A stretch of 64,000 bases of DNA, taken from positions 1,422 to 65,421 of the forward strand of contig JAKIWQ010000005.1 in assembly GCA_022749935.1 (NCBI GenBank). The letters are read 5' to 3'. Position numbers and translations under genes: made by a program. The notes beneath the pieces are model-generated. The model had not been told where the DNA came from and made no database searches. It saw only the letters and a list, made by a program, of their open reading frames with translations. Numbering within the stretch: the stretch's first letter is position 1; each line of letters begins with the position of its first letter. The stretch comes from Thermoplasmata archaeon. Lineage in GTDB: Archaea > Thermoplasmatota > Thermoplasmata > Lutacidiplasmatales > UBA184. Shown here piece by piece: positions 15,011 to 39,154 of this stretch.

Positions 15011-15277
15011 CTAGAGCAGGCCCTCCTCCATCACTTCGACCGACTCGACGTGGGGGACCTTCGCGAGCGCGTGCTCGGTCGACTCGAGCACGCCGCCCGT
15101 GTCGGGCATGACGACGGAGACGAGGAGCGATTTGAGTCCGTAGGCGATCTCCTTGACCTGCACGCCCCGAAGGGTGACGGTGGCCGGGAGCGACGCACGG
15201 GCCGATTTGGCCACCGCCTCCATGTCGGTCTCGACGCCCTGGGGCATCAGACGGAACAGCACGGCGACCTGACCCAT
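15011..15277 (-). CDS. ef1b: translation elongation factor aEF-1 beta
   Basis: An 88-aa protein MGQVAVLFRLMPQGVETDMEA...EIAYGLKSL...VEVMEEGLL, typical of aEF-1beta in size and sequence. The start is set inside the 15011..15640 ORF. Confidence 0.85.
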   Translation of the reverse strand: MGQVAVLFRLMPQGVETDMEAVAKSARASLPATVTLRGVQVKEIAYGLKSLLVSVVMPDTGGVLESTEHALAKVPHVESVEVMEEGLL

Positions 15278-15285
15278 CGTCGCTC

Positions 15286-15483
15286 CTACGGTCCCTCGAA
15301 CCCGCACTTCGGGCAGAGGTAGCCGACCGACTGGTCGCGGCAGCGGGAGCAACGGCCGATCGCAGCGTCCCCGCACTGGGGGCAAGGGAATTGGGTCGCC
15401 CCGCGGGCGGGCACGGCCCGGCCGCACGAAGTGCACCGGAGTTCGGATACAGAGTGCATGGTGGAGGGTCCGGAGAGGCTCAC
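15286..15483 (-). CDS. HVO_2753-like four-C(P)xCG zinc-finger micro-protein (DUF1610)
   Basis: It carries CTSCG, CPQCG, CSRCR and CPKCG. It lies immediately upstream of aEF-1beta, as in other archaea. Its GTG start overlaps the upstream stop as GTGA. Confidence 0.7.
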
Positions 15484-16298
15484 TTCTTCGAAGTGCCGCG
15501 CCGGCGCGCGCCCACCCGGGCCCCGAATATAAGGAGTGCCCCGAAGAACGCGGTCGCCCCCGCCACGTACCAGATCGTGTAGCTGGTCGGGGGGCCGGGG
15601 ATGGTGAACGAGACCGAGTAGGTGGTCGTCCCGTTCGCAAACCGGACCAGTCCGTGGACGGTGGGGAGGGAGACGGTGAACGTGTGCTCCCCCGCGCCCA
15701 GATCCGTGACCGCGTACTGGAACTGGAAATGGTAACTGGCGTGCGGGAGCATCTCGGGGATGCTGACGTTGCCGACCGCGACTCCGTCCAGGTCGACCAG
15801 GAGCGCGAAGCTGGTCACGCTGTCATTGCCCAGGTTCAACAGGGTCGTGGAGAGGACGAACGGTTGGACGACCGTCACGCTCAGCGTGAAGTTGGTGGAC
15901 GCGTTCGACCCGTTCAAGGTCGACGCGAGTTCGACCGAGATCGTGAGAACCTCGCTCACGTTCGCGACGGTCAGGCTCACCTTTCCGGGGGCCCCGGTCA
16001 GGATCCGACCCTGACTCGGTGCGATCGACACGCCGGTCGTGTTCGGTCCGGTGACCTTGAGGTAGTAGGTGAGGTTGCCGACGATCGTTCCGTTCGGCGC
16101 CACGGCGGGCCCGCCGGTCCCGTTGATGGTGTAGGCGCCCGCCCCGTGGTAGGCGAGGACGGTCTTGCCGACGATCGTCCCGGTGACCGGACCGGAGGTG
16201 CTGGCGGCCCGAACCGGGGGAGCGGCGAGGGAGAGCGCCCCGACCGAGGCCGGCACCAGGATCACCAGCAGCAGGAGGGCGAGGAGCGGGGTTCTCAT
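15480..16298 (-). CDS. sequon-rich, tail-anchored surface protein
   Basis: A 272-aa protein with a signal-like N-terminus ([20 protein letters not shown]) and a C-terminal helix plus basic tail ([30 protein letters not shown]). I count 11 N-x-S/T sites. Its ATG overlaps the aglB stop as ATGA. Confidence 0.7.
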
Positions 16299-19200
16299 CG
16301 TCGGGTCCACCTCCGCGTCTTCAGCCACCGCCGCACGAGGAGGGCCACGGCGAGGCCGATCGCGGGCACGAACGCGAGGAGCGGGATGACCCAGTCGGGG
16401 AGGGTCGCGGGGGGCGTCGCGACGCCCGGCCCGGTGACGGTGAACGGCGCGCTGGCGTTCGTGCTCCCCGGAGCGACCGTCGCCACCGGCACTTTGAGCG
16501 TGGTCGACGCCGCGACCGAACCACTCGCGTTGGTGACGATGGCTGAGAGGGTCACCGTCCCGACCGGCACGAAGATGGTGCTGGTCGTGGTCAGGTTGAC
16601 TTCCGCCGTCGAATTCACGCCCGGCGCGAGCCCGACCGGGCCGGCGAGGGTCCCGTTCTGGGCGTGGATGTTGACGTTCCACCCCAGCGATTGGATCCGG
16701 ACCTGGTCCACGACGGTCAGGTGGACGGTCTCGTAGACGTTCCCCGTGTCCACGAGGAAGAACGGCAGCAGCGCGTGCGTCAGGCTGACGGTGGGCGGCG
16801 TGGTCGGCGAGGGGCCGATCGCGACCCCGTAGTATCCGTTGATCCGGAGCGAAGGCGAGGGGGCCACCGTCCCGGCGAACGTACCGTTGGCCAGCAGGAG
16901 CTCGAGGAGCACCGGCGGGTGGAGCACGACGGTCCCGCCGGGGACGTGGATGGTGACCGAGGCGGCGAGCGCGGAGCCTCCGGGGCCCGGGTTCAGGGTG
17001 GCGTTCGTGAAACTGAAGCTGAAGTTCCAGAACGAGGGGGATCCCGTAGGGTGGACGGTGATGGGCGCGTTCCCCGAGTCACGGACCGAGAACTGGTAGG
17101 TGACCTGCGCGCCGGCGTTGAGCGTCTGGTCCGGGCTCCCGAGCAGCGTGCCCGCGGCCTGGTAGTGGAACGCATAGACGAGGGGGACCGTGACCGCGAC
17201 GTTTCCGGCGGCGACGAGCAGGGGCACCGTGGCGGTCGCATTGGCCGGCACACCGTAGGGCGAACCGACGGCCGTGGCCTCGACCGTGTACTCCCCGAGC
17301 GGGAGGGCGAGGGAGAACGGGGTACCGATGGTCACGCCGGCGTACACCGCTCGGCTCCCCGTCGCGCTCCGAACGAGGACGGTGGCGTTGCCCAGCGTTC
17401 GGGCGGAGCCATTGGGCGGGCCGACGGTGATGGTCGCGCTCCACGTCGGTTGGAGGTCGAGAGCGATCGGAGCGCTCGTCGGCAAGGCGACAACGCCCGA
17501 GAGGTTGGCGAGCAGTTCGGAGGCCCCACCGCCCGTGGCATAGACCGAGTACGCTCCGGGAAGGACCTGCGTCGAAAACGTTCCATCGGTCGTAGTGAGC
17601 AGGGTGACCGAACTGGCCGGGTACGGTCCCGCGATCCGCACGGTTCCGGGGATGAGCCCGGGAACCCCCACGGCCGACAGCGTGCCGTTCAGCCAGACCC
17701 GGTTCGTGACGGGCACGACGTTGACGGTGCAGGTGGAGACGTTGCTGGCCGTGCCGATGACGCACACGGAGCCCGGGGCCGTCGTGTAGGTCACGAAGTA
17801 ACTCCCGTTGACCCCCGAGGTCAGGGCCGTCACGTTCGTGGTCGCGAGGAACTGTCCGCCGGCCGGTAGGCTGGTGGAGAACGTCCCGTTGGCGATCTGC
17901 GTATGCAGCTTCGAGCCGTCCGGAGCCGAGAGCGTGAGGACCGCGTTCACCGGGACGGTCTTGCCGCCGGTCCCCACGAGCTTGCCGGTGACGGTCACCC
18001 CGGCCGTCCGGAGCGAGAGGCCGGGCGTGATCGTGCCGCCCGCGCTGATCGTGACCCGGGTCAGGTTGGTGTACGCGACCCCGTCCGTGGTGAGGCTCGC
18101 ATGGGCCGAGTACGTCCCCGGGGCGACGTAGAATCCCCGGGTGAAATTCGTCCCATTGACGGTGATGTTGAACAGCGGAGACGTCAGCGCGATGGTGGCG
18201 TTCCCCCGGGACCCTCCCGGCGGCAAGAGCAGCGTTCCCGACGCGTTGATCCCCGGGACGACGAGGAGCGTCAAATTGGTCGAGTACGCTCCGAGAGGAA
18301 TGGTCGTGTTGAGAAGGGAGGAGGGCAAGTAGACGACCGTGCCGTGGCCGATGACCGCTCGTGCGGAGACGGTGTACCGGCCGGGCGTGGTCGTGAAGGT
18401 GAAGACCGGACCGCCCGAGAGGTCGTGGGTCGTCGCGGGGTCGCTCAGCGCGGTCAGGTTGGCCAGCACGGGGGTGCCGGACGGAAGTCCCGTGATCGTG
18501 AGGCGGACGTTGACCGGCCGAAGACCGAGCGTGAACCGGCTCATGGTGGCCAGGCCGTTCGCGGAGATACCGCATTCCGTGGACGGGAGGAACCCTGCCG
18601 ACTGCGCGTTGAGACAGTACCCTCCGGCCGACAGCGGGAACGAGGCCGGCACGTAGAACGCGACCGTCCCGTTGCCCGTGGCGAGGGTCGGGATGGTCGG
18701 CCCACCGGGACCTGCCGAGATCGAGACCTGGGCCGCGGCCGCGGGGTAGACACTCCCGCTCGGCAAGGGCGAACCCACGACGAATCGCGTCGCGACCGCG
18801 GTCGTCGGGGAGAGGTGGAGGACGGTCGGGAACCGCAGGGTCACCTGGGCGAGGGCGGCCGAGAGACCGGTCGGCACGGTCGGCGGGCCCTGGAGCGCGA
18901 GCACGGTGTAATTGCCGAGCGGCAGGAGGAGGGAGTACGACCCGTTGGAGGCGGCCCACGTCGTGACCTCATCCAAGCCGGATCGGTAGGCGAGCACGGC
19001 CGTCGCGGTCGTGTTCGTCGCGGGCCCGGCGCGAGCGATCGTGCCGGAGAGTCGCGCGGTCGTCCCCAGCACCAGGGGCGTGGGTCCGACCGGCAGCCCC
19101 GGGAACGCGGTCACCGTCGTCAACGCCGAGAGGAGGTTCGACCCGACGTATCCGAGGGCGTAGACCGAGTAGTTTCCGACCGGAAGGGTCGCGGTGACGA

Positions 19201-22200
19201 GTCCCCCCGGGCCCGAGAAGATCACGGTCCCGTTGGACGTAGAGCCCTGCAACGCGGCGATCGGAGATCGAGAGGAATCGGGATAGCTCGGCAGCGGGAC
19301 GAACCGGACCGGCAGGTTGCCCACCGGAGCCCCGTTCGCCTCGAGGACGAACTGGACGGTCGCCGTCGGCTCGACCGTGAGGTTGGTGGCCACTCGGGTT
19401 CCGGGCGACACGACCTGGACCGTGACGCCGGAGGAGCGCATGAACGACGCCGGCCCGGTCGCGATGAGCGAATAGTTGCCGGGACCGAGTCCGCTGATGG
19501 TGTAGATCCCGGTCGCGTTGGAGGTCGTCGACCCGACCGCTCCGGACAGGTTGTACACCGTGACGAGCGACCCGGTGACCGGAACGTTCTGGAGGAGTAC
19601 CGTGCCGGTGAGCGTGGCGGGGCTGAGTCCGACCGTGCCGTTGTGGCTAACCCCCGGGGTGAGGAACTGCGCGGCCTGGGTGTAGTTGTGGCCGCCGAAG
19701 AGGATACTGTAGTTGTAGACTCCCGGCACCACGTTCGTGAGGTCGAACGTCCCATCCCGGTCGGTGACCGTGGTGACCCGCTTCTCGCCGTTGGGGCCCC
19801 ACAGGACGATCTGAGCCCCCGCGACCAGCGGGTCCCGGTACGGCACGTACGTCGTGTTGTTCGCCACGTTCCAGTAGATCGTACCGGTGAATTGGGAGGT
19901 GCCGAGCTGGACGACGCGCGAAAGGGGCGGGGAACTATACCCGAGACCGTACGAGTTGGACACGTACAGTTTGAGGGTTTTCAGGGGGACCGAGCCTTGC
20001 TGGGAGAGGCCGACCAGGCTCCCCGTGGTGAAGTTGAGCGTGTCGTTCCCCGGCGGAAGCACGAGGGTGAACGACCCGTCGGCAGCGGTCAGGGTGGTCA
20101 TGTGCGGGATCCCCCACTGGTCGAAGACCGTGACGCGAACACCCGGCGCGGCGGATCCGTCCGCGAGGCGGGCCGCTCCCAGGAGCGTTTGCCCGGGATA
20201 GTACTGGAGCATCGCCTCCCCTCCCTGGAAGTACCGGAAGGTGGAGGTGTTGGCGACGGCCCCCTTGGTATCGTTCGCCCGTTCGACCGCGTCGGGGAGG
20301 TTCGACGCGAGGCAGTTTGAGCGATTGTCGTCCGCCTTGGTGGGGCAATAGTAGGCCGTCCGATAGACCACCTGGAAGTGTTGGAGCATCCAGCCGGGCT
20401 CGATCGGGGAGCTCTGGAGGTTCGAGGAAAGCCCCGGGATACCGCCCCCGGCCTGGCCGATGTTCGTCCCGTTGTACCCGATGTACGTCCGGTAGATCAT
20501 CGAGTGATAGAACGCCGAGAAATAATTGATATTGTACTGAACGGGAGAGACACCCGCCGGTACCTGGCCGAGCGGGTAGGAGTTCCCGTCCGAACCCAGT
20601 ACGGTGACGTTGAAGAAGGTCGAGGGAAGTCCGGCGGCGTTGATGACCCGGCCCGTCAGGTCAGCGGGGGCGTAGAAGATCCCGGTGTCCTGTCCGCTGA
20701 ACGGAAACAGGCGGCTGTCGGTCATGTCGTAGCGGATCGTCCAACCTGTGTACGCTTGCAGGTCGTCGTAGAGTTTCGAGACTCCCGTCAGCGTCAGTGA
20801 GGATCCGAGGAAGTAGGAGACGGCGAGGTACATCGCGTTGTCATCGGTGAGGGAGTTCGGGTTGACGGGGAGGTACCGGTTCGGGTTCGCGACCACGAGC
20901 CGGTAGTCGGCGCTCGTATTGGCCAGCAGAGGATGCAACTGACTGACGTTCACCCCGTCAGCGGTGAGGAGGGTGTTCACGGACGGGAGAAGGTACGTGT
21001 CGCCGCTCCTGCGCTGCTCCGCCTGGAGGAGCGTGGTGGCCAACACCCCGATCGCGTTCGACTCGTTCTGCGCGAGGAGGAACTGTCCCGCCGGGTCGAT
21101 CCCGTTCTGGAAGTTGTCGGCGACGCTGGGGTGGTTCCCCTGATCGATCGCCTGGAATCCATAATCCCACCAACTGATGAACGCCGGACGATTCGGCGCG
21201 GGAGTATTCGTATCCTGCTGGGCGAGCCAATTGTACCCGGCGCTATCGTACTGATTGGGCGTATCGAGCGAAGTTCCCGCGGCCCCGAAGTAGGCGTTCG
21301 AGGCCCCGACCGTCGAGCTTGGCTGAAGCCAGGAAGGAAGCGAGGAGGCGACCTGCTGGGAGAGCTGAGACTTCGAGTTGCCCGGGATACCGGCATCGAC
21401 CGAGATCCAGAGGTTGGGCAGGAGCAGGCCGAGGACGAGCGCGAAGACGAGTACGTGTCGGATCTTGAAGGCCCGACGGAAGGCGGAGAACTGGCTCCGT
21501 CGGTCCGACAGGGAGGCGACGGTCCGCCGGAGTTCGGGGAACCCGGCGATATCGAGCGCCCGCCGGAGCGCCTCCGCGGGGAGGAGCGCGAAGGCCGGCG
21601 AGCCGAGTAGGAAGAACTTCGCGGCCGAGATGGGCAGGTAGATCGACAGGATGGCGAAGACCAAGAACACGGCGATCCCTCTCGGGAACCGGCCCCGTGC
21701 CAACTGGAAGACAAAGAGCGCGAGGCCGACGAAGGCGAGGAAGAACGTGATGACGCCATACCCCACCACGAGCTGGTCGATGGACGGCGCCTGCGCTTCG
21801 GCGACGGTCGAGTAGATCAGATTCTTGACGAAGTATCCCTGCCCGGTCACGATACTCGTGAAGTAATCCGGGCTCAGCAGGGCGAGGCCCACGGCGGCGA
21901 GCGCGACGATCCCCGCCAGGATCGGGATGGAGACGACCCAGGGGGTGTCGCGCAGGAGGACGAAGGGTAGGAGGATTCCGAGGACGCCGAAGAAGAGCAG
22001 GAGGGGCAGACCGAACCAGATGGCGAACTGGCTCTGGGCGAGGTAGTACGGGATGGCCATCGGAAAGCCGACCAGCCCGACGATCCACGCGCAGACGTAG
22101 AGTCCGAACGAGTCCACCCGCCGGATCCGTTCGGCGACGAGGAGGATGAGCAGGGAAAGTGCGATGATCACGACGCCGTAGGTGTACCCCTGCCACGCGA

Positions 22201-22903
22201 GGGCGAGGGCGCCCACGCTCACTCCGGTGAACACGGCCCACTTGACGGCGGAACGTTCGGTACGGAGGAAGACCCGCAACCCCCCGTAGATCTGCTTCGG
22301 GTCCCGGAACGAGCCGACATACCTCGTACGACCGACGGTCTTCACCGTCCGGATCCACGAGTACAGTACGATCAGGATGAGGAAGGTGTAGAACGAGAGA
22401 TAGTTCGCATACCCGAAGATGGAGGAGTTGATGCTCGCCGGAATGAAGGGGAAGATCATCGCCGCGATGAGGCCGGTCCGGCGAGAGCTGATCTCCTTCC
22501 CGACCAGATACACCGGGAACACGCTCATCGCCGCCCAGAGGGGTCCCTGCAGGTCGAGGAACCAGGCCCCGGCGACGACGGCGTTCCCTCCAAAGAACGG
22601 GGCGAAGACGAGCCCGAGGATCGCGTTCATCCAGTCGAACAGCGGTTCCCGCGGATTGATCGCCCCGAAGGGGAACTTCAGCATCTGGTCCTTGACCAGG
22701 TTCGTGTGGTTCAGTACGATGTACTGCATCACGCGGGAGTGGTAGAACGAGTCGGACCCCCCCGCGTAGGTGTAGAGGGCGCCCCACTGCTCGATGACGG
22801 GGTAGGTCCAGACGGTCCGGACGATGAACGCCGCGGCAAAGGCGCCCAGGAGGATGGCGACCGTCCAGACGTTACGACGCCACCAGCCTGAGCTCGACTC
22901 CAT
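16295..22903 (-). CDS. aglB: archaeal oligosaccharyltransferase AglB/STT3 with giant C-terminal extension (2,202 aa)
   Basis: It has a multi-TM N-terminus, GGSDSFYH in the first loop, TVAE in the long external loop and WWDYG at aa 578-582. It then continues uninterrupted through beta-sandwich repeats to a C-terminal TM helix. Confidence 0.9.
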   Translation of the reverse strand: MESSSGWWRRNVWTVAILLGAFAAAFIVRTVWTYPVIEQWGALYTYAGGSDSFYHSRVMQYIVLNHTNLVKDQMLKFPFGAINPREPLFDWMNAILGLVFAPFFGGNAVVAGAWFLDLQGPLWAAMSVFPVYLVGKEISSRRTGLIAAMIFPFIPASINSSIFGYANYLSFYTFLILIVLYSWIRTVKTVGRTRYVGSFRDPKQIYGGLRVFLRTERSAVKWAVFTGVSVGALALAWQGYTYGVVIIALSLLILLVAERIRRVDSFGLYVCAWIVGLVGFPMAIPYYLAQSQFAIWFGLPLLLFFGVLGILLPFVLLRDTPWVVSIPILAGIVALAAVGLALLSPDYFTSIVTGQGYFVKNLIYSTVAEAQAPSIDQLVVGYGVITFFLAFVGLALFVFQLARGRFPRGIAVFLVFAILSIYLPISAAKFFLLGSPAFALLPAEALRRALDIAGFPELRRTVASLSDRRSQFSAFRRAFKIRHVLVFALVLGLLLPNLWISVDAGIPGNSKSQLSQQVASSLPSWLQPSSTVGASNAYFGAAGTSLDTPNQYDSAGYNWLAQQDTNTPAPNRPAFISWWDYGFQAIDQGNHPSVADNFQNGIDPAGQFLLAQNESNAIGVLATTLLQAEQRRSGDTYLLPSVNTLLTADGVNVSQLHPLLANTSADYRLVVANPNRYLPVNPNSLTDDNAMYLAVSYFLGSSLTLTGVSKLYDDLQAYTGWTIRYDMTDSRLFPFSGQDTGIFYAPADLTGRVINAAGLPSTFFNVTVLGSDGNSYPLGQVPAGVSPVQYNINYFSAFYHSMIYRTYIGYNGTNIGQAGGGIPGLSSNLQSSPIEPGWMLQHFQVVYRTAYYCPTKADDNRSNCLASNLPDAVERANDTKGAVANTSTFRYFQGGEAMLQYYPGQTLLGAARLADGSAAPGVRVTVFDQWGIPHMTTLTAADGSFTLVLPPGNDTLNFTTGSLVGLSQQGSVPLKTLKLYVSNSYGLGYSSPPLSRVVQLGTSQFTGTIYWNVANNTTYVPYRDPLVAGAQIVLWGPNGEKRVTTVTDRDGTFDLTNVVPGVYNYSILFGGHNYTQAAQFLTPGVSHNGTVGLSPATLTGTVLLQNVPVTGSLVTVYNLSGAVGSTTSNATGIYTISGLGPGNYSLIATGPASFMRSSGVTVQVVSPGTRVATNLTVEPTATVQFVLEANGAPVGNLPVRFVPLPSYPDSSRSPIAALQGSTSNGTVIFSGPGGLVTATLPVGNYSVYALGYVGSNLLSALTTVTAFPGLPVGPTPLVLGTTARLSGTIARAGPATNTTATAVLAYRSGLDEVTTWAASNGSYSLLLPLGNYTVLALQGPPTVPTGLSAALAQVTLRFPTVLHLSPTTAVATRFVVGSPLPSGSVYPAAAAQVSISAGPGGPTIPTLATGNGTVAFYVPASFPLSAGGYCLNAQSAGFLPSTECGISANGLATMSRFTLGLRPVNVRLTITGLPSGTPVLANLTALSDPATTHDLSGGPVFTFTTTPGRYTVSARAVIGHGTVVYLPSSLLNTTIPLGAYSTNLTLLVVPGINASGTLLLPPGGSRGNATIALTSPLFNITVNGTNFTRGFYVAPGTYSAHASLTTDGVAYTNLTRVTISAGGTITPGLSLRTAGVTVTGKLVGTGGKTVPVNAVLTLSAPDGSKLHTQIANGTFSTSLPAGGQFLATTNVTALTSGVNGSYFVTYTTAPGSVCVIGTASNVSTCTVNVVPVTNRVWLNGTLSAVGVPGLIPGTVRIAGPYPASSVTLLTTTDGTFSTQVLPGAYSVYATGGGASELLANLSGVVALPTSAPIALDLQPTWSATITVGPPNGSARTLGNATVLVRSATGSRAVYAGVTIGTPFSLALPLGEYTVEATAVGSPYGVPANATATVPLLVAAGNVAVTVPLVYAFHYQAAGTLLGSPDQTLNAGAQVTYQFSVRDSGNAPITVHPTGSPSFWNFSFSFTNATLNPGPGGSALAASVTIHVPGGTVVLHPPVLLELLLANGTFAGTVAPSPSLRINGYYGVAIGPSPTTPPTVSLTHALLPFFLVDTGNVYETVHLTVVDQVRIQSLGWNVNIHAQNGTLAGPVGLAPGVNSTAEVNLTTTSTIFVPVGTVTLSAIVTNASGSVAASTTLKVPVATVAPGSTNASAPFTVTGPGVATPPATLPDWVIPLLAFVPAIGLAVALLVRRWLKTRRWTRR
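16394..20188 (-). other. AglB C-terminal extension: repeated CarboxypepD_reg/Ig-like beta-sandwich modules (aa ~906-2170)
   Basis: There are recurrent modules such as GARLADGSAAPGVRVTVFDQWG...TAADGSFTLVLPPGN. I count 43 N-x-S/T sequons by hand. It is followed by the TM helix WVIPLLAFVPAIGLAVALLV (16334-16393) and an [12 protein letters not shown] tail. Confidence 0.7.
21158..21172 (-). other. WWDYG catalytic motif of AglB
   Basis: FISWWDYGFQ read from the translation at aa 578-582. Confidence 0.85.
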
Positions 22904-22951: not shown

Positions 22952-22959
22952 TATTTATA
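22952..22959 (-). promoter_or_regulatory. TATA-like box (minus strand CTATAAATAC) upstream of aglB
   Basis: The only AT-rich element in the 106-nt spacer, about 50 nt upstream of ATG 22903. Confidence 0.4.
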
Positions 22960-23009
22960 GCCTCCCAACACGGCGGTCGCGGTGGCTCGCCGGAGGCTCG
23001 CGCCGGTCG

Positions 23010-23537
23010 CTAGGGGTCGGTCGCGCGGAACCGGTAGAAGTACCGGCCGTCCCCGATGTCGAACGACTCGAGACGAACCGCGGAGCCGATCTGAAGCTCG
23101 GTCCAAGGGCGCCCCTCGATCCGTCCGAACAGGCGCAAGGGAGCCCCGTCGAGGTCGACCAGCCCCACGGCGAACGGAACCTCGTCCTCCATTCCGAGCG
23201 GAGCCCCTCCGAGGACCGCGCTGAACGCGTAGACGTGGCCCACCTCCGGGAGGTCGACCCACTCGAGCTCTTCGGAATGGCACTGGGGGCACGCCGTTCT
23301 CGGCGGCCAGTGGAGGAGTCCGTCCTTCGGGCACCGCGTCGTCGAGACCCGGCCCTCCTTCAACCGGTCGAAGAATCGGGAGAGGCGGGTCTGGTCCGAA
23401 GACTCGAGCGGGAAGAAGTCGAGCAGGAAGGGACGCCGCTCCCTCGTACGAACCGGAGGCAACGGGGCCTCAGGAGGTGGCGGGACCGGGGCGGCCAGGA
23501 TAGGTCCGGGTCGACGAGGTCGGGGCTCCGAGCTCAT
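23010..23537 (-). CDS. DUF35 OB-fold/zinc-ribbon acyl-CoA-associated protein (paralog 1)
   Basis: A rubredoxin-like CPKDG...CPQCHS followed by an OB-fold region. Its ATG overlaps the thiolase stop as ATGA. Confidence 0.8.
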   Translation of the reverse strand: MSSEPRPRRPGPILAAPVPPPPEAPLPPVRTRERRPFLLDFFPLESSDQTRLSRFFDRLKEGRVSTTRCPKDGLLHWPPRTACPQCHSEELEWVDLPEVGHVYAFSAVLGGAPLGMEDEVPFAVGLVDLDGAPLRLFGRIEGRPWTELQIGSAVRLESFDIGDGRYFYRFRATDP

Positions 23538-24718
23538 GCGGCGCTTCCTCCCTGGTAGATCATCACCGAATGGACGTTCGCGCTCCCCGACAGATTGTGG
23601 ACGAGCGCCCACTCCGGGTCCGGAACGGTTCGCGCGGGCGGGGCCTTTCGGGCGAACTGACGGTAGACTTCGACCGCCTGGGCGATCCCGGTCGCCCCGA
23701 GTGGGTGGCCGCACCCGAGCAGTCCCCCCCGCGGGTTGACGACCACCTTTCCGCCGATATCCGCCTGCCCGTCCGCGACGAACGCGCCCCCCTGACCCGG
23801 GGGGCACCATCCGAACATCTCGTATTCGATGATCTCGGAAACCGTGAAGCAGTCGTGGACCTCGGCGAAATCGATCGCCTCAGGACCGACCCCGGCCCGG
23901 CCGAAGGCTTCGCGAGCGGCGTGCTTCAACCCTGTCCACTCCGTCAGCGAGCCGGCGTGGGCGAGGTTGTGGAAGTCCGAGTACTGTCCGGTCCCGCGAA
24001 TCCACGCGGGGGTGTCGGTGTACTTCTTCGCACGGTCGGCGGCCACGAGGACGACCGCCGCCGCCCCGTCGGTCATGGACGAGCAGTCGCCGAGACGAAG
24101 GGGCGGTGCGACGATCGGGAGGCGGAGCAGTTTCTCTCGAGAGAACGTCTTCTCGTGGAACTGGGCCTCGGGGTTGGAATTCGCGAACCGGTGATTCTTC
24201 TCCGACACCGCCGCGAATTGATCCTCGGTGGTCCCGTATTCCAGCTGGTGCCGTTGGGCCACCATCGCGAAGAACGGGGGGGCGGTCGCCCCATGGGGCC
24301 CGTCCCAGGCCCGGTCCATCACGCACGCCATCGAGGTGTTGGCCTCCGCCATCGAGGGGAGGTTCATTTTCTCGACCCCCACGGCGACCGCTACATCCGA
24401 GAGTCCGGCGGCGATGGCGGCGTAGGCGGACCGGATCGCGGATTGACCTGACGCACAGGCCAGCTCGGTCCGCTGGATGATCCGATGGGGTCGCAGCCCC
24501 ATTTGCTCGGCGGCGAGGGGCGCGACGTGGGACTGAAAGGCGAACCGTTCGGGCTCGGCGGCCCCGAGGAAGAGCGAGTCGACGTCCTCGGCCCGAAGTT
24601 CCGGCATCTCACGGAAGAGTCGGGCTCCGACTTCTTGGGCGAGCTCGGCCCACGTCGACGGGCGGACACCGAATTTCGTGGTCGTCCCGCCCACGAGAGC
24701 GACGTCGCGTACGTTCAT
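23534..24718 (-). CDS. thiolase-family acetyl-CoA C-acyltransferase (paralog 1)
   Basis: A 394-aa protein MNVRDVALVGGTTTKFG... with active-site region ELACASGQSA and C-terminal GHPLGATG. The start is set at M321 of the long ORF and overlaps the leuB stop. Confidence 0.85.
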   Translation of the reverse strand: MNVRDVALVGGTTTKFGVRPSTWAELAQEVGARLFREMPELRAEDVDSLFLGAAEPERFAFQSHVAPLAAEQMGLRPHRIIQRTELACASGQSAIRSAYAAIAAGLSDVAVAVGVEKMNLPSMAEANTSMACVMDRAWDGPHGATAPPFFAMVAQRHQLEYGTTEDQFAAVSEKNHRFANSNPEAQFHEKTFSREKLLRLPIVAPPLRLGDCSSMTDGAAAVVLVAADRAKKYTDTPAWIRGTGQYSDFHNLAHAGSLTEWTGLKHAAREAFGRAGVGPEAIDFAEVHDCFTVSEIIEYEMFGWCPPGQGGAFVADGQADIGGKVVVNPRGGLLGCGHPLGATGIAQAVEVYRQFARKAPPARTVPDPEWALVHNLSGSANVHSVMIYQGGSAA

Positions 24719-25848
24719 GCGGCCGCCCCCCGGATCGCCGCGGCGACGCGGTCCCCGGCCTCGGAGGTGGTGGCGTGGCCCCCCTGGTCGTACGTCCCGG
24801 CCCCTCCGTGACTCAGGACCGTGCCGAGCGTTCGCTCGAGTCGGTCGGCCTGGGTGAGGAGGCGCGCATCGTGATGACGCTCTCCGAGCCAACGAAGCAT
24901 CTGTTCGACCGCGAAGAAGGTCGCGAACGGATTGACCTGGTTCTTGCCGGCATACTTGGGAGCGGAGCCGTGGACCGGCTCGAACATGGCGTGTTCGGCC
25001 CCGATATTCCCTCCGGAGGCGAACCCCATCCCCCCTTGCAGGACCGAGGCGAGGTCCGTGACGATGTCGCCCATCATGTTGGTCGTGACGGCCACGTTGT
25101 ACCGCTCCGGATTCCGGACGAGCCACTGCGTGAAGGCGTCCACGTAAGCGTAGTCCTTCTCGATCTCGGGATACTCGCGAGCGATCCGGTCGAACGTTTC
25201 CCGAAAGAACCGGCACCCTTCCATGACGTTCGACTTGTCGATGCAGGTCAGGCGCTTGACCCCGTCCTCCGGCGCTCCCCGGGGACGGGCTCGGGCGAGC
25301 TCGAAGGCGTACCGGATGACCCGCTCCGACCCCTTCTTCGTGATGATCCGGGAGTCGATCGCGACCTCGGTCTCCCCTCCCCGCCGAAGCCGTCCCCGGG
25401 CGGGGGTGTAGAGGTCCTCGGTGTTCTCGCGGACGATGACCATGTCGACGTGCTTCGGGGACCAGACCTCGCGATACGCCCCACTGATCCGGTGGAGCAC
25501 CCCCGGGTAGAGCCGGCACGGCCGGACGTTGGCGAACAGGTCGAGCCCCTCGCGCAGTCCGAGCACGAGGGCCCGGCCCGCGATGTCCCCGTTCGGGAGC
25601 GTCGCTCCCGGCCAACCGACCGCACCGAGCAGGATGGCGTCCGCCGATCTCGAAGCCGCCTCGGCGTCCGGCTCCCATTCCCGGCCGGTCTTGAGGTAGT
25701 ACTGGCCGCCCCCCGGGTACTCGGAGGCGTGCCAGGGCGCGGGCCCTCCCTCGGCGAGAGCGTTCAGGACCTTTCGGCCCTCCCGCACCACTTCCGGGCC
25801 GGTCCCGTCCCCCGGGAAGATGGCGATCTCGTACCCCGCGTCTTTCAT
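24715..25848 (-). CDS. leuB: isopropylmalate/tartrate-type beta-decarboxylating dehydrogenase
   Basis: AIFPGDGTGPEV, VRENTEDLY and EPVHGSAPKYAGK motifs. The sequence resembles the tartrate/D-malate/IPM dehydrogenase subgroup. Substrate is assigned only from the leuCD context. Confidence 0.8.
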   Translation of the reverse strand: MKDAGYEIAIFPGDGTGPEVVREGRKVLNALAEGGPAPWHASEYPGGGQYYLKTGREWEPDAEAASRSADAILLGAVGWPGATLPNGDIAGRALVLGLREGLDLFANVRPCRLYPGVLHRISGAYREVWSPKHVDMVIVRENTEDLYTPARGRLRRGGETEVAIDSRIITKKGSERVIRYAFELARARPRGAPEDGVKRLTCIDKSNVMEGCRFFRETFDRIAREYPEIEKDYAYVDAFTQWLVRNPERYNVAVTTNMMGDIVTDLASVLQGGMGFASGGNIGAEHAMFEPVHGSAPKYAGKNQVNPFATFFAVEQMLRWLGERHHDARLLTQADRLERTLGTVLSHGGAGTYDQGGHATTSEAGDRVAAAIRGAAA

Positions 25849-34380: not shown

Positions 34381-37300
34381 CTAGCGCTTCGGCGGCACGG
34401 CGTACTGCCAGGCCGGCCGGGCCGGAGGAGGGGGTCGCCGGGTCGCGAGGATCCCGATCACCAGCGCCAGGGTGAGCGCGAGGATCCCGAACCCCGCGGC
34501 GACTTCCCAGGCCAGGTTGGAGTTCGTCCCCGAACCGGGACCGGTGTTGTTCGCGAGCGGGACGAGGACCACCAGGACCGTGGTGGTCCCACCCCCCTGG
34601 ATCGTGACGTTGTTGAAGTACGGGTGGTAGCCGGAGGCGGTGGCCTCGACCGAGTGGAGTCCGGCGGGAAGGGACACGGAAAGGTTGCTCCCCGAGGAGT
34701 TGCTGACGAGCTGGCTGTCGATCCACACCTGGGCGCCGACCGGGTTGAATTGCAGGTAGAGCTGACCCGGGGCCCCGACTTCCGAGAACGCCAAGGTGAT
34801 GGTCGTGTTGCTGGTCAAGTTGAGCGAGCCCTCCATCGGGTCGGCGGTGTACCCCGCGGGGGGACTCACCGTGAAGTTGTAGGGCCCGGTCGCGAAGAGC
34901 TCGGCGGGGAATTGCGCCACGTTCCCGAGCTCGATGAACCCTCCCCACTGGGGGTTCGAGATGGTGATGGCCCAGAAGCTCCCGATCGGGAAGTTCACCG
35001 TGTGGAACGTGAGCGAGTAGATCCGGTAGAACGTGAGATTGTCGGTGACGTTGACGGACCCCACTTGGAGGTACTGGGTGTTGGGGATCCCGTAGGAGCC
35101 GTTCAGCGTGTTCGCGATGAGGAAGTACTGCCCGGAAGGCCACTTCTCGGTCAACACCGTACCGGTCGACGTGTTGTAGGCCACGCCCGTAGAGGTGTAC
35201 ACCCCGACGTGCCAGGACGTGCCCGCCGGAAGGCCCGACTCTTGGAACGTCACGGTGAACAGGGGGCCCGGTACGACCGGGTGCTCGTCCCCGCCGAGGG
35301 CGATGCGACCGCTCGAGTTGTACGGAAGGACCCAGTACGGGTCGTTCGACGTCCCGTAGTCCCACCAGTAGTTTCCGCCCAGCTCGTCGCCGCCCGCGAT
35401 ATTGAGTCCCGAGCGGGGGGTCACGTTCCAGAGCGAGTCGAACGGTAGTCGGGGAGCGAGGCCCGTGTACGGGTCGAGGGTCGGCGAGTAGGCGGTGTGG
35501 AAGTCGCCGATGAGGTTGTTGTAGAGGAGGTCGCCGCACCGGCACCCGGCTCCGGGGGCACGACCATCCCCGAAATCGGCGTCGAACACGCCGTTGGATC
35601 CGTGGACGGCGCCGGAGATGGAGCCGGCGTTCGCGGCGAGCGGGATGTACTGGAGGAAGGTGTTGTTCTCGACCGAATTGTTCTCCCCGCCGTACAGGTA
35701 CAGCGCCCCGCCTCCGGTGAGGAATGTGTTGCCGACCACCGAACTCGCGGACGTGTTCCAAAAGACGACGGAATACTGCGGCGCGCTCGGTCCGAAATAG
35801 GCCGAGTCGAACCACCAGCCGCCGATCGCGGCTCCTCCCGCGAGGGTGACGTTGGTGTCGTCGTAGAAGAACAGGCCGAGGTCGTTGGTGGCCGGGGTTC
35901 CGAAGCGGGCGGTCGCGTTCGCGAGCCACGGAGGGGTGGTCACCTCGAGCGATGGGGGTGAGGACACCACGACGTTCTGGACGTTCCAGAGGAAGATCCC
36001 CGGGAAGACCGGGAAAAGGAAGTCGTTGAACTCACCGAACCAGGGGAACGAAACCCCGGGGCCCCGCCCGGTTTCGCCCAGCGGACCGAACTCGTTGCCG
36101 TAGAGCGTGCACGCCCCGCCGCCACAACTGGAAGAAATGTTCGAGAGGTCGCTGGCCCCGAACGCCCACAGGGGAGTGTAGACCCCCAGGGCGGGGGCCC
36201 CCGTGAGCGTCACATTCAGGAACGCTCCCGCGAGGGTCAACACGGTGGTCGAGCGAATGGGAGCATATTCGGACGCGACCGACCAGATGGAATACGTTCC
36301 CGGCGGCAGGAGATACGTGGACCCACCCGGCGCCCATCCGAACTCGCTGAGGGGAGGAGCGGAGCCGACGCCGATGAAGGTGAACCCGTTCGAAGGCGCC
36401 ATTCGGTAGTGAAGGACCGCCTGACCGACCGAGCTCGGCGTCACATTCCATGCCCCGAACAGGAGAGAGGGCCCCTGGCCGAGGTGGATCGCGGGTCCGG
36501 AGGTACCTCCGAGTCCGAGGTCCCCGTGGGTCGTCCAACTGGTCGTGAGCCCCGCGGAGGTCTCGCCCGTCTCGGCGCCGGCGTTGTACGCCGAGGGAAC
36601 GACCTGGAAGCGGCTGCTAGTCGACGACCAATAGTAGAGGTCGAGGGCGGCGGAGGCGTTGAGCGCGTCAAAATTGCTCCCTCCCCCGGGGCCGACCACG
36701 TCCATTTCAAAATCATCCGGCAACCCCAACGCGTTGTAGATCGTGCCGTCCGCACGGTACACCGGGGAGGGAGGCACCCCGCCCCCGCCGCCTATCGGAG
36801 TTGAGTTGAACTGGACGTAGTCGTAGGAACCCGAGAGGGTTTTCGTCGCGTTCGCGAGGGTGTAGTTGAAGTAGACGAAGTCCGCCCCGGGCCCGGCCGC
36901 CGAGTTGAGGAACAGGGTGAGAGTGAACGGGTATCCCATCGTCAGGACCGGGCCGAGGGCGTAGTAGAACGTGGTACCGACCTGGGTCCCGTTCGGACCG
37001 TGCGCCGCGATCGCGTTCGTGGAGAGCGCGCCGGACGACCCGGAGAAGTTCCATACGTTGTCGACGAACGCGAGCTGATGGGAGAACGTGGAGTACTCCA
37101 TGACGTTCTGGGTCCAGAACTGGTAGGACGTGTTGCCCAGCAGCGTCACGTTCGTGAGCACGGCGTTGAGCTGGACGCCGTACGCGTCGGGCGCCCCGGA
37201 ATCCGGGGATACCCCGGAGAAGGCCGTGGGGGCGAAGGTTCCGGCCACCCGGGAGGTGTTGAGCACCGTGCCCACCAGCGTTCCCGACTCGTTCACGATC

Positions 37301-37719
37301 CCGAGGTCCGCGACTCCGATCGGTGCGGGAGAGGTCGGATAGGTCGGCTGGATGTGACCGTTGACCAGCCCGCTTCCCAGGTGCCCGTTGAGGTTGGGCA
37401 GGAAGGCATCCCGCAACGGGACCCCCAAGGATTCGATCGATCGAGCCAACCGGGCCGTGGCCCCGACGGGGGATCCGGTACCGATCGGGGAGGAGGGGGT
37501 CAGTCCGTTCGGGGCCTGAGGTGGCCCCCCCGCGGGTTCCGCGGAGGGCAGGTGCCCCCGGGCCGGGGGGGCCAAAAGAGGGTGCGCCCCGGGGCTTCCG
37601 TCCGGGCCCCGAGCACCCGCCGCAGGGAGCGAGAGGTTTCCGAGAAGTCCGATCGAGGCTACCACCATTAGGGCAACGACGAGGACGGGGCGAGCCAGAA
37701 CGCCCACACCGCGCGACAC
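34381..37719 (-). CDS. thermopsin-family (peptidase A5) protein with beta-helix and PEGA-like domains and C-terminal TM anchor
   Basis: Blocks SPAPIGVADLG, YGVQLNAVL, FWTQNV...FVDNVWNFSGS, FYYALGP and MDVVGPGGGSN parallel Sulfolobus thermopsin as I recall it. These are followed by NNSVENNTF-type beta-helix repeats, a PEGA-like module (VWIDSQLV...GLHSVEATASGYHPY) and a TM helix. The ORF runs to 37863, but GTG 37719 precedes the signal-like helix and avoids overlap with hisS. Confidence 0.8.
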   Translation of the reverse strand: MSRGVGVLARPVLVVALMVVASIGLLGNLSLPAAGARGPDGSPGAHPLLAPPARGHLPSAEPAGGPPQAPNGLTPSSPIGTGSPVGATARLARSIESLGVPLRDAFLPNLNGHLGSGLVNGHIQPTYPTSPAPIGVADLGIVNESGTLVGTVLNTSRVAGTFAPTAFSGVSPDSGAPDAYGVQLNAVLTNVTLLGNTSYQFWTQNVMEYSTFSHQLAFVDNVWNFSGSSGALSTNAIAAHGPNGTQVGTTFYYALGPVLTMGYPFTLTLFLNSAAGPGADFVYFNYTLANATKTLSGSYDYVQFNSTPIGGGGGVPPSPVYRADGTIYNALGLPDDFEMDVVGPGGGSNFDALNASAALDLYYWSSTSSRFQVVPSAYNAGAETGETSAGLTTSWTTHGDLGLGGTSGPAIHLGQGPSLLFGAWNVTPSSVGQAVLHYRMAPSNGFTFIGVGSAPPLSEFGWAPGGSTYLLPPGTYSIWSVASEYAPIRSTTVLTLAGAFLNVTLTGAPALGVYTPLWAFGASDLSNISSSCGGGACTLYGNEFGPLGETGRGPGVSFPWFGEFNDFLFPVFPGIFLWNVQNVVVSSPPSLEVTTPPWLANATARFGTPATNDLGLFFYDDTNVTLAGGAAIGGWWFDSAYFGPSAPQYSVVFWNTSASSVVGNTFLTGGGALYLYGGENNSVENNTFLQYIPLAANAGSISGAVHGSNGVFDADFGDGRAPGAGCRCGDLLYNNLIGDFHTAYSPTLDPYTGLAPRLPFDSLWNVTPRSGLNIAGGDELGGNYWWDYGTSNDPYWVLPYNSSGRIALGGDEHPVVPGPLFTVTFQESGLPAGTSWHVGVYTSTGVAYNTSTGTVLTEKWPSGQYFLIANTLNGSYGIPNTQYLQVGSVNVTDNLTFYRIYSLTFHTVNFPIGSFWAITISNPQWGGFIELGNVAQFPAELFATGPYNFTVSPPAGYTADPMEGSLNLTSNTTITLAFSEVGAPGQLYLQFNPVGAQVWIDSQLVSNSSGSNLSVSLPAGLHSVEATASGYHPYFNNVTIQGGGTTTVLVVLVPLANNTGPGSGTNSNLAWEVAAGFGILALTLALVIGILATRRPPPPARPAWQYAVPPKR

Positions 37720-37821
37720 GTGAACTCCCAGCGTGGACGCAGTTGATACCTCTTGGGGCGGCAAGGCCCTACCTGGCGGAGGGCGCCTGGGGGTGGCCCG
37801 AGCGACCACCGGGTCGAGCAG

Positions 37822-37829
37822 TTCATAAG
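37822..37829 (+). promoter_or_regulatory. TATA-like box TTCATAAG upstream of hisS
   Basis: It lies about 27 nt upstream of GTG 37853, consistent with a leaderless or short-leader transcript. Confidence 0.35.
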
Positions 37830-37852
37830 AGCGAAGGCACGCTGCCCCGGCT

Positions 37853-39154
37853 GTGCCGTTCACCGCGCTCCGGGGATTCCGGGACTATCCCCCTCCCGAA
37901 GCCGGAGCCCGGTCGGAGATCCGTCGCCGCATGCGCGCCGCAGCCCGTCGGGCGGGGTACTCCGAGCTCGAGGGCCCCTGCGTGGAGAGCTTCGAGCTCT
38001 ACCAGACCAAGAGTGGCGAGGGCATCGCGGCCGAGACCTGGCTCTTTCGGGACAAGGGCGAGCGTCCCGTGGCGCTAGTACCGGAGACCACCCCCTCGTT
38101 GGCCCGGATCTTTGTCGACCGGGCGAAATCGGAACCCCTCCCGGTCAAGTGGTTCACCATTTCGAAGATATGGCGGTACGAGGAGCCTCAGGCCGGGCGG
38201 ACCCGCGAGTTCCTCCAGTTCAATCTCGACATCCTGGGAGTGCCGGGCGTGGAGGCCGAGGCCGACCTCCTCTCCACCGCGGCTCTCGTGCTCGACGAGG
38301 TCGGGGCCGGTGGCCTCTACGCGTTTCGGCTCAACGACCGGGCCCTCGCGGAAGGGATCGGTCTGTTGTTCGGCGCCCAGGACGTCGGGAGATTCTTTCG
38401 TGCGGTCGACCGCTTCCACAAGATCCCGCCCGCCGAGTTCGAGGGCGAGGTGGCCCAGGCCGGCGTCTCCCCGGACGCGGCCGCCGAACTCGCCGTTCTA
38501 TTTTCAAAGGCGGGCGCTGGCGTGCCACCGGCGGAGGTCGAGCGGTTCCTCCAGGAGATCGAGGGTCGGGGCCTCGCCGAGGCGGGTCGGGCCGGGATCG
38601 TCCGCCTCCGCCGCCTCTTCTCGCTCCTCGAGCGGGCCCGTCTGGGGGACCGGGTGGTCTATGACCCCACCGTGGTGCGGGGGCTCGCGTACTACACCTC
38701 CACCGTCTTCGAGGCGTATTCCCGTTCCGGGGATGGACGAGCCCTTTTCGGAGGGGGACGGTACGACCATCTGATCGAGCTGTTCGAGGGGCCGGCGACG
38801 CCGGCGGCCGGCCTCGCGATCGGAGACCAGACGCTCGAACTCCTCCTCAAGGGCGCGGGCCGATGGCCCGATGGGGAGCCGCCCCTCGACAGCTATGTCG
38901 TCGTCAACGACCCCGAGCGCATCCCGGACGCCATCGAGCTCGTCCAGGAACTCCGCCACGCGGGGACCAGCGCGGACTGCGACCTGCTCGGCCGCTCGAT
39001 GTCCCGTCAGCTCAGGGAGGCCGCACGGCGCCGGGCCCGTCGCGCGCTGATCCTGGGGCTGAAGGAGGCCGGGCCAGGTGCGATCGTCGAGCGTGATCTG
39101 ACGACGGGTGTCCAGCGTGAGATCCCGCGGAAGGGGGCGGCACGACCGGGGTGA
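37853..39154 (+). CDS. hisS: histidyl-tRNA synthetase
   Basis: LRGFRDY N-terminus and class II motif 2 region WRYEEPQAGRTREFLQFNLD, in a 433-aa protein. Confidence 0.9.
   Translation: MPFTALRGFRDYPPPEAGARSEIRRRMRAAARRAGYSELEGPCVESFELYQTKSGEGIAAETWLFRDKGERPVALVPETTPSLARIFVDRAKSEPLPVKWFTISKIWRYEEPQAGRTREFLQFNLDILGVPGVEAEADLLSTAALVLDEVGAGGLYAFRLNDRALAEGIGLLFGAQDVGRFFRAVDRFHKIPPAEFEGEVAQAGVSPDAAAELAVLFSKAGAGVPPAEVERFLQEIEGRGLAEAGRAGIVRLRRLFSLLERARLGDRVVYDPTVVRGLAYYTSTVFEAYSRSGDGRALFGGGRYDHLIELFEGPATPAAGLAIGDQTLELLLKGAGRWPDGEPPLDSYVVVNDPERIPDAIELVQELRHAGTSADCDLLGRSMSRQLREAARRRARRALILGLKEAGPGAIVERDLTTGVQREIPRKGAARPG

Follow-up and report, generated by a model that had tools for sequence, protein, structure and literature searches.

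A giant AglB homologue with a beta-sandwich extension and an overlapping CARDB gene in Lutacidiplasmatales, a form spread across Thermoplasmatota

A giant aglB gene and its reading frame

Archaeal and bacterial oligosaccharyltransferases (OSTs) are treated as single-subunit enzymes of ~600-1,050 residues, and accessory subunits are seen as a eukaryotic elaboration. The gene described here, aglB, encodes an OST homologue of 2,202 residues and lies on the reverse strand of a 64,000-nucleotide stretch of DNA (the window) from a Thermoplasmata archaeon of the order Lutacidiplasmatales (GenBank assembly GCA_022749935.1, contig JAKIWQ010000005.1, positions 1,422 to 65,421). Its catalytic core is followed in the same frame by a long extension of beta-sandwich domains, a last membrane helix and a basic tail, and its stop codon overlaps the start of a second gene, orfD (Table 1). 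An earlier sequence-only reading of the window had described the protein as an AglB fused to a sequon-rich stalk. Taken as a whole, the explanation that fits best, and that is fairly probable, is that this is the AglB of Lutacidiplasmatales in the form typical of Thermoplasmatota: an active enzyme whose extension would arch over the membrane and which would work in a complex with its coupled partner.

Table 1. Features of the aglB-orfD locus (positions in the window; residue numbers refer to AglB)
Feature	Residues	Position	Strand	Basis
Putative archaeal promoter, TATA-box-like CTATAAATA		22952..22960	(-)	~50 nt 5' of the aglB ATG; read by eye from the sequence
aglB, giant Thermoplasmatota-type oligosaccharyltransferase gene	1-2202	16295..22903	(-)	single ATG-started open reading frame, 2,202 aa + stop
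N-terminal multi-pass GT-C membrane domain	1-505	21389..22903	(-)	hydropathy peaks; helical in AlphaFold2 model; aligns to AfAglB 7-596
First acidic motif GGSDSFYH (D51 = AfAglB D47)	48-55	22739..22762	(-)	alignment
Second DXD/DXH motif position, GYANYL, degenerate	164-169	22397..22414	(-)	alignment
TVAE = TIXE motif of external loop 5 (E369 = AfAglB E360)	366-369	21797..21808	(-)	alignment
External catalytic globular domain	506-905	20189..21388	(-)	mixed alpha/beta in AlphaFold2 model; conservation
WWDYG	578-582	21158..21172	(-)	motif scan; aligned to AfAglB WWDYG
Array of about 13 beta-sandwich domains	906-2140	16484..20188	(-)	Pfam, HHalign self-repeat, AlphaFold2, motif scan
C-terminal (14th) transmembrane helix WVIPLLAFVPAIGLAVALLV	2171-2190	16334..16393	(-)	hydropathy 2.69; AlphaFold2 helix aa 2172-2196
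Basic Trp-rich cytoplasmic tail	2191-2202	16298..16333	(-)	translation; 7 Arg/Lys in 12 residues
Shine-Dalgarno-like GGAGGTG for orfD		16308..16314	(-)	within the tail's Arg-Arg-Trp codons, 9 nt ahead of the overlapping ATG
orfD, partner gene, 272 aa		15480..16298	(-)	Sec-type signal peptide, N-terminal beta domain, CARDB (PF07705), C-terminal transmembrane helix, basic tail

The window has a G+C content of 64-72%, in keeping with its order: Lutacidiplasmatales are described with ~69% G+C and genomes of ~2.1 Mb (PMC9287336). The single uninterrupted frame, and the catalytic motifs, last helix and 12-residue tail that the sequence-only reading had placed in it, were all recovered by open reading frame (ORF) call and translation at the residues given in Table 1. 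A search of 5.8 billion proteins returned 365 relatives. The best 120 of these all measure 2,109-2,211 aa and share 53-74% identity over 96-100% coverage; in nearly all of these 120 clusters the length falls between 2,190 and 2,211 aa. They derive from independent NCBI, JGI, ENA and Logan assemblies, and the closest genomes are soil and peat metagenome-assembled genomes (MAGs) labelled 'Thermoplasmata archaeon' together with Candidatus Lutacidiplasma silvani; the closest orthologue is on contig CAWEHV010000002.1, of 2.3 Mb. The frame is uninterrupted in ~40 species-representative genomes of the order. The family alignment comprises 2,289 columns for proteins of ~2,200 aa, with a conserved region at the junction of core and extension; identity to the query is 62-85% in the core up to ~aa 850 and lower beyond, at 35-55% in the extension. 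Rough dN/dS ratios (nonsynonymous over synonymous rates) of 0.14-0.24 for the core and 0.26-0.59 for the extension can be taken to say only that both are below 1, as dS is near saturation and third codon positions are biased in G+C (GC3).

These data bear on whether the frame could be an artefact in which an AglB gene and a surface-protein gene have been joined by a missed stop, a frameshift, or an error of assembly or annotation. Such an origin is vanishingly improbable. It is contradicted by the open frame in the 120 clusters, in the ~40 genomes of the order and in the finished genome of Thermoplasma volcanium, as well as by a GC3 of 0.89 along the full length of the ORF and by the conserved junction. 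Because the same open frame recurs in independent assemblies, a missed stop or frameshift is excluded and read mapping at the junction becomes unnecessary. No support for two genes was found beyond a few MAG loci with broken frames (L014, L026, L043 and L053), in which ORFs of 1,051-1,996 aa end in nonsense tails; these are most likely frameshift errors of the assemblies concerned and not a split ancestral state.

The catalytic core

Residues 1 to ~905 had been assigned to AglB/STT3 from their motifs, and remote homology now bears out the assignment. A broad profile of the core, built from 24 diverse genome loci, matches AglB-L of Archaeoglobus fulgidus (AfAglB-L; 5GMY/3WAJ, chain 5gmy_A) with E 7e-30 over residues 7-596. 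The broader profile was needed because narrow searches did not reach AfAglB-L: the single sequence or the narrow family profile recovered from the PDB only the WWDYG region of short AglBs, along with NOMO. With the AlphaFold2 (AF2) model of the core, Foldseek places AfAglB first (7e9s_A; E 3e-16, target-normalised TM-score (TMt) 0.54); next come human STT3A/B, yeast Stt3 and PglB, with the human and yeast STT3 proteins at E 1e-11 to 1e-8. The model covers aa 1-1110 and is of moderate quality, with a predicted local distance difference test score (pLDDT) of 70.5. Standard family models come close to their cut-offs or cover part of the protein: Pfam STT3 scores 23.2 bits against a cut-off of 24.5, AglB_core likewise falls slightly below its own, and NCBIfam TIGR04154 (archaeo_STT3, the archaeosortase A system-associated OST) gives E 6.8e-59 and 200 bits over aa 16-624 only, short of its curated cut-off of 450 bits.

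Alignment places D51 of GGSDSFYH on GGNDPWYYY of AfAglB (PglB counterpart D56) and T366-V-A-E369 on TIAE (PglB counterpart of E369: E319). No variation is seen at D51, T366, E369 or W578-W579-D580 among 79 family members, nor among 31 diverse sequences of 27-63% identity. The protein has the overall fold of STT3/AglB/PglB (GT66), the acidic residue of the first DXD motif, the TIXE glutamate and WWDYG, and by alignment and predicted structure it is an AglB/STT3 homologue with a core of 13 transmembrane (TM) helices of the GT-C type and an external globular domain. At ~110 aa past WWDYG there is a conserved N689-A690-(M)-Y block, which could not be aligned to a known DK/MI motif; variant DK motifs are hard to recognise without a structure, according to Kohda's group (PMC3703281).

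The N-terminus of the protein, MESSSGWWRRNVW (aa 1-13; 22865-22903, reverse strand), is rich in Trp and Arg, and W7, W8 and R10 hardly vary. It is similar to the C-terminal tail, itself rich in Trp and Arg, and both ends are predicted to lie on the cytoplasmic face.

The extension and its second membrane anchor

The extension had been described as a series of repeated CarboxypepD_reg/Ig-like modules. Its repeated beta-sandwich character stands, and Pfam extends the family name CarboxypepD_reg solely to the region around aa 1027-1167. Compared with itself by HHalign, the extension shows a register shift of ~108 residues over aa ~920-2060 at 99.5% probability. AF2 predicts aa 1003-2202 as all-beta save for a helix at aa 2172-2196 (mean pLDDT 87; predicted TM-score (pTM) 0.60). 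A PxGxY motif recurs in the CarboxypepD_reg-like domains, and the CARDB-like motif xxGN occurs at aa 1942 and 2052. Profiles of single domains, aligned by HHalign to the whole extension, picked up only a few sister domains, and for this reason the domain count is based on the whole-array self-match, the PxGxY and xxGN motifs and the AF2 secondary structure. These yield an estimate of ~11 CarboxypepD_reg/transthyretin-like domains and two CARDB-like domains, the latter at the end. The Foldseek neighbours of the extension are generic proteins with multiple Ig or macroglobulin domains, including alpha-2-macroglobulin and complement, pilins, teneurins and SlaB; neither an OST accessory subunit nor NOMO is among the top 50 matches.

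The hydrophobic helix and basic tail noted earlier at the C-terminus are supported by hydropathy and by the AF2 helix. Both the family and nearly all giant relatives retain the helix, and the tail, RWWRTRRWTRR, is almost invariant within the order. The N-terminus and the C-terminal tail are both positively charged, and the external domain falls between TM13 and TM14. With the C-terminal domain of AglB outside the cell and a basic tail behind the last helix, the extension is estimated to be held in the membrane at both ends, by TM13 and the C-terminal helix, and would therefore form an arch or hairpin. The earlier term 'stalk' is thus abandoned, since a module anchored at both ends must loop back to the membrane.

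No PGF-CTERM or other NCBIfam sorting signal was matched by the tail of the window protein at E <= 1. In five distant giant AglBs from Thermoplasmata MAGs (P0186, P0190, P0197, P0208 and P0243) a PGF(E)-type motif precedes the TM helix, and two of the five reach the NCBIfam cut-offs for Loki- or Heimdall-CTERM. This suggests that some lineages process the C-terminus of AglB by an archaeosortase-type mechanism.

A translationally coupled partner

The start codon of the partner gene overlaps the stop codon of aglB (ATGA; ...CGA CGA TGA / ATG AGA...), and purine-rich equivalents of its Shine-Dalgarno-like element are found at the same place in loci of all lineages. The near-invariance of the tail RWWRTRRWTRR within the order is probably explained by this arrangement, as its codons double as the Shine-Dalgarno element for orfD. 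Orthologues of orfD lie directly downstream of aglB in 57 fetched loci, mostly with the same 4-nt overlap, from Lutacidiplasmatales, Methanomassiliicoccales, DHVE2 and other lineages. In the finished genome of T. volcanium the gene for the 2,076-aa AglB likewise overlaps by 4 nt the downstream gene for a CARDB protein of 259 aa. The CARDB domain was matched in 24 of 25 aligned orthologues (best E 9e-17).

From gene order and overlap, aglB and orfD are predicted to be translationally coupled, in a pairing conserved phylum-wide. Conservation of this coupling argues for stoichiometric co-production, and from this we infer that AglB and its CARDB partner form a physical, stoichiometric membrane complex. 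An origin of orfD as a copy of the C-terminal domains of the extension is not claimed, HHalign of the partner family against the extension giving a non-significant E of 0.04.

Sequons and N-glycosylation

Residues 906-2202 contain 43 N-x-S/T sequons (x not Pro), exactly the number that had been counted by hand, and these take up 66% of the Asn residues in this part of the protein. Shuffles that preserve composition yield 13.4 +/- 3.2 sequons, with a maximum of 23 (n=2,000). Across the 120 family members the extension carries 27-50 sequons (median 37), which account for a median 61% of its Asn. Twenty-one sequon columns are kept in at least 80% of the 120 sequences, and 16 of these 21 are in the extension. 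Since its sequons are both enriched and conserved in position, the array is very probably N-glycosylated. The strength and positional conservation of this enrichment, which extends to other exported proteins, imply that N-glycosylation is active in the organism.

The idea of a dense array of acceptor sites placed in cis with the catalytic domain is overstated, since the density is real and is not special to AglB. Over its 1,160 aa a thermopsin-family protease carries 33 sequons, which take up 46% of its Asn, and in the partner CARDB protein 11 of 12 Asn are so placed; for all other genes of the window combined the figure is 13.5%. As other exported proteins of the window are equally sequon-rich, the sequon density of AglB appears to be the norm for exported proteins of the lineage, and not the mark of a dedicated cis-acceptor array.

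The protease is a 1,160-aa exported protein (34381-37863, reverse strand) that combines a thermopsin (acid protease) domain with NosD and PEGA/CarboxypepD_reg segments and a C-terminal TM anchor. A second 'WWDYG' of the window, at ~aa 832 of this protein, was dismissed as coincidental.

Distribution of giant AglBs

The earlier reading had put the protein at about twice the usual size and knew of no described example of either role that it proposed. An exhaustive HMMER scan of 1.84 billion cluster representatives with the core alone produced 271 matches at E<1e-30. Among the 150 listed, most full-length proteins measure 2,000-2,775 aa, down to 28% identity, which removes any claim to rarity. 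Nearly all giant relatives end in a hydrophobic helix and a basic tail. Named members include T. volcanium GSS1 TVG1271204 (BAB60377.1, UniProt Q979C6; 2,076 aa), Caldiplasma sukawensis and a Ferroplasma species, and others come from MAGs of Methanomassiliicoccales and DHVE2 and from many listed as 'Thermoplasmata/Thermoplasmatota archaeon'. Automatic annotation calls them STT3, GT39 or 'carboxypeptidase regulatory-like domain-containing protein'. Judged from these sequences, the giant architecture is the norm across Thermoplasmatota, and the window gene is one typical representative of a large clade. This clade forms a distinct variant within a known class of enzymes and has been in the databases since the T. 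volcanium GSS1 genome was deposited. In the literature on archaeal AglB and on Thermoplasmatota groups no description was found of the size, the 14th TM helix or the partner, and no experimental study of giant Thermoplasmatota AglBs was found in the literature searched.

A shorter type of Thermoplasmatota AglB, of 1,057-1,263 aa, has a few beta-sandwich domains and neither the terminal TM helix nor the partner gene. None of the genes adjoining the short-type loci is common to the giant-aglB loci compared. Related genomes were examined for fused and split arrangements, as had been proposed; the fusion is found in ~40 genomes of the order and no split state was found. For the short AglBs of 1,154-1,156 aa, a split into AglB and a separate array gene is ruled out, as these are complete genes whose next downstream gene is neither orfD-like nor a detached array. 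Two of the short-type genes, in loci L082 (3475-6945; 1,156 aa) and L083 (2616-6080; 1,154 aa), lie on contigs of 68-69% G+C, a composition like that of Lutacidiplasmatales. They may be paralogues in the same genomes or belong to members of another high-GC order. L083 has a separate 317-aa CarboxypepD_reg gene ~0.9 kb downstream of its short aglB.

A degenerate second metal-binding motif

The metal-site residues of the enzyme class have been reviewed as D161, H163 and R154 in AfAglB, D154, D156 and R147 in PglB, and D166 and E168 in yeast (PMC7226087). At the columns of AfAglB R154, D161 and H163 the window protein has S160, N167 and L169, and the canonical second motif is missing. The consensus of its relatives, R...A-D-H-D, aligns on AfAglB R154 and N160-D161-H162-H163, and most giant relatives have R...ADHD. 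Among 122 representatives, Asp occupies the first motif position in 86 and the third in 93; N-Y-(L) occurs in 10, and D-G-R-(M/A)-H, the Thermoplasmatales type, in ~21. Almost all genomes of the order have GYANYL, and a few have ADYL, ADYQ or SDYQ. The change within the order is graded, because some members (ADYL, ADYQ and SDYQ) keep Asp at the first position, and the motif appears to have drifted in Lutacidiplasmatales from ADHD through ADY[L/Q] to ANYL.

One further substitution lies in the loop adjoining this motif. At aa 159 (22427-22429, reverse strand) the window protein has Asn where at least 90% of the family has Asp (consensus NIDSS, here SINSS), and N159 creates an N-S-S sequon present in only 2% of relatives.

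The three replaced residues raise the prospect of a pseudo-enzyme, in which the giant AglB of Lutacidiplasmatales has lost catalysis, is kept as a structural or a glycan- or peptide-binding envelope protein, and leaves glycosylation to another OST. Short high-GC Thermoplasmatota AglBs with LDHD or ADHD exist and could be paralogues. Several observations make this account unlikely. D51, E369 and WWDYG do not vary, and conservation within the protein is highest in the core (62-85% identity; dN/dS 0.14-0.24). The graded loss within the order also speaks against it, and so does general chemistry, in that Asn can ligate metal by its carbonyl oxygen. A second locus was seen in no assembly of the order among the 80 best Thermoplasmatota-type AglB loci, and no assembly at all occurs twice among these 80 best genome loci. 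Short-type clusters and the giant family share no long contig either, a weak and in effect uninformative test in that the listing compared did not contain the giant family itself. An active enzyme with a remodelled metal site is the likelier alternative, because selection for sequons in exported proteins is strong and none of the other catalytic residues varies; on these grounds we infer that the giant AglB of the order is still active.

Genomic neighbourhood

No agl glycosylation cluster was seen among the window neighbours of aglB, which are housekeeping genes. Upstream stand genes for a DUF35/ChsH2-like OB-fold protein, a thiolase, isopropylmalate dehydrogenase and aconitase-type subunits; downstream are those for an HVO_2753-like zinc-ribbon protein, aEF-1beta and YdjM. 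A purine-rich GGGAGG precedes the TATA-like CTATAAATA, which may be the promoter element of aglB.

The pair directly 5' of aglB (23010-25678, reverse strand) consists of a DUF35/ChsH2-type OB-fold and zinc-ribbon protein and a thiolase, a pairing known from the archaeal acetoacetyl-CoA thiolase complex. The gene beyond it encodes an isopropylmalate/isocitrate dehydrogenase and not HMG-CoA synthase. Directly 3' of orfD is the HVO_2753-like zinc-ribbon gene (PF07754, E 4e-16; ~15290-15480, reverse strand), followed by aEF-1beta (~15011-15290, reverse strand); a listed 209-aa ORF at 15011-15640 overextends the real aEF-1beta of ~90 aa.

A proposed mechanism and its alternatives

In the proposed mechanism, the core would transfer a dolichol-linked glycan to Asn-x-Ser/Thr of exported proteins at the outer face of the membrane. 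D51 and E369 of TVAE would serve as acceptor- and donor-activating residues and are kept together with the WWDYG pocket. The polypeptide would then continue outside the cell as a length-constrained array of ~13 domains and re-enter the membrane by its 14th TM helix. The core may also glycosylate its own array and its partner, in cis or in trans; a self-glycosylating, surface-layer-like OST had been the first of the two roles proposed earlier. Array and partner would act as non-catalytic modules resembling accessory subunits, which could shield the catalytic site, space it or set its position in the glycocalyx; they may instead couple the active site to other envelope components. Since the length of the array is strictly conserved, a ruler or spacer role is indicated.

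The same length conservation (2,190-2,211 aa in nearly all 120 clusters), as expected of a ruler or spacer, would also suit a chiefly structural extension, many copies of which would form the glycocalyx or space a pseudo-periplasm in the often wall-less Thermoplasmatota, as an envelope scaffold or surface-layer (S-layer) substitute with the OST built in, the second role proposed earlier. The numerous, positionally conserved sequons are in line with such a scaffold, as are the pilins and the S-layer protein SlaB among the Foldseek neighbours, the sequence likeness to NOMO, a 12-domain beta-sandwich rod with a C-terminal TM helix, and the existence of cultured Thermoplasmatales such as Cuniculiplasma that lack an S-layer yet keep AglB. 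The likeness to NOMO and pilins is, however, generic and at the level of single domains. The architecture is the same in lineages across the phylum whatever their envelope type, enzymes are usually of low copy number, and there is no sign of high abundance or of lattice contacts. A scaffold of this kind is accordingly judged distinctly improbable.

Set against an active, arched AglB working with its coupled partner are several considerations. The canonical second metal motif is absent (S160/N167/L169), which leaves activity not assured, and a more distant second AglB could be present in the same genome, as high-GC short AglBs exist in the phylum. The AF2 model of the core is only moderate, with low-confidence catalytic loops. 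The arch geometry and domain count are estimates made without inspecting the coordinates of the extension model, and association with the partner, glycosylation of the array and its shielding or spacing role are all deduced.

A bolder form of the proposal can be put forward tentatively, as rather unlikely in its entirety. The core, the cis-fused arch of ~13 domains and the co-translated single-pass CARDB protein would constitute a multi-component OST of Thermoplasmatota in one complex that doubles as a major glycosylated structural element of the often wall-less cell surface; in Lutacidiplasmatales it would have a site lacking the canonical DXD, as either a metal-site variant OST or a pseudo-enzyme. 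AglB of this phylum is consistently ~2,100-2,800 residues long and has a second membrane anchor, an ectodomain array of strictly constrained length and a coupled partner. If these pieces do form a complex, they would represent an independent archaeal route to a multi-module OST and could account for the way in which the glycocalyx is organised in Thermoplasmatota, a phylum with many wall-less members. Within the clade, most interest attaches to the coupled partner and the degenerate metal motif, and the latter offers in Lutacidiplasmatales a natural experiment on the active-site residues that STT3 proteins require. As the same operon is present in cultured T. volcanium and, by extrapolation, in its relatives, experiments are possible beyond metagenomes.

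Comparison with known systems

The structurally characterised AfAglBs measure 868 aa (AfAglB-L) and 591 and 593 aa (PMC3703281). AfAglB-L (PDB 3WAJ/3WAK/5GMY/7E9S) and the window protein have the same fold, with a 13-TM GT-C domain, the same order of motifs and an external globular domain. AfAglB-L ends after this domain, whereas in the window protein it is followed by beta-sandwich domains over ~1,300 aa, the 14th TM helix and the cytoplasmic tail. They differ further in the coupled partner gene of the window aglB and in its S160/N167/L169, where AfAglB-L has R154/D161/H163. At the second motif, giant AglBs of the Thermoplasmatales type read DGR(M/A)H and those of most remaining lineages ADHD, against ANYL in the window protein.

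The C-terminus, with its TM helix and basic cluster, recalls surface glycoproteins sorted by archaeosortases (PGF-CTERM); unlike those substrates, it matches no sorting-signal model, although PGF-, Loki- or Heimdall-CTERM models are matched by some distant giant AglBs. The resemblance of the extension to S-layer proteins amounts to generic fold similarity to multi-Ig surface proteins, SlaB included.

By sequence profile, the best PDB match of the extension is NOMO2, a subunit of the BOS complex (PDB 9C7V; E 4e-19). NOMO consists of ~12 transthyretin/CarboxypepD_reg-like beta-sandwich domains, one C-terminal TM helix and a short tail. Like the window protein, it joins a string of beta-sandwiches to a C-terminal TM helix, and it resides in the membrane system where N-glycosylation occurs; unlike the window array, it is a separate type I protein that is not fused to STT3. 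All five hidden Markov model (HMM) matches to NOMO2 fall at profile positions 1022-1205 and thus within two domains, so that the likeness is generic and confined to the domain level. The NOMO-specific domains of Pfam stay below their cut-offs on the window protein, and homology to NOMO does not extend to the whole array.

The eukaryotic OST (STT3A/B, ribophorins and OST48) offers a parallel in organisation, as it combines a catalytic STT3 core with single-pass proteins that have beta-rich lumenal or external parts. It differs in that the accessory-like module of the window protein is fused in cis and the complex is hypothetical. Among the Foldseek and HMM matches, neither the extension nor the partner showed homology to an accessory subunit of OST. 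The arrangement as a whole is matched by TVG1271204 of T. volcanium, which has the core (~29% identical to the window core), a long beta-sandwich array, a C-terminal TM helix, a basic tail and an overlapping downstream CARDB gene.

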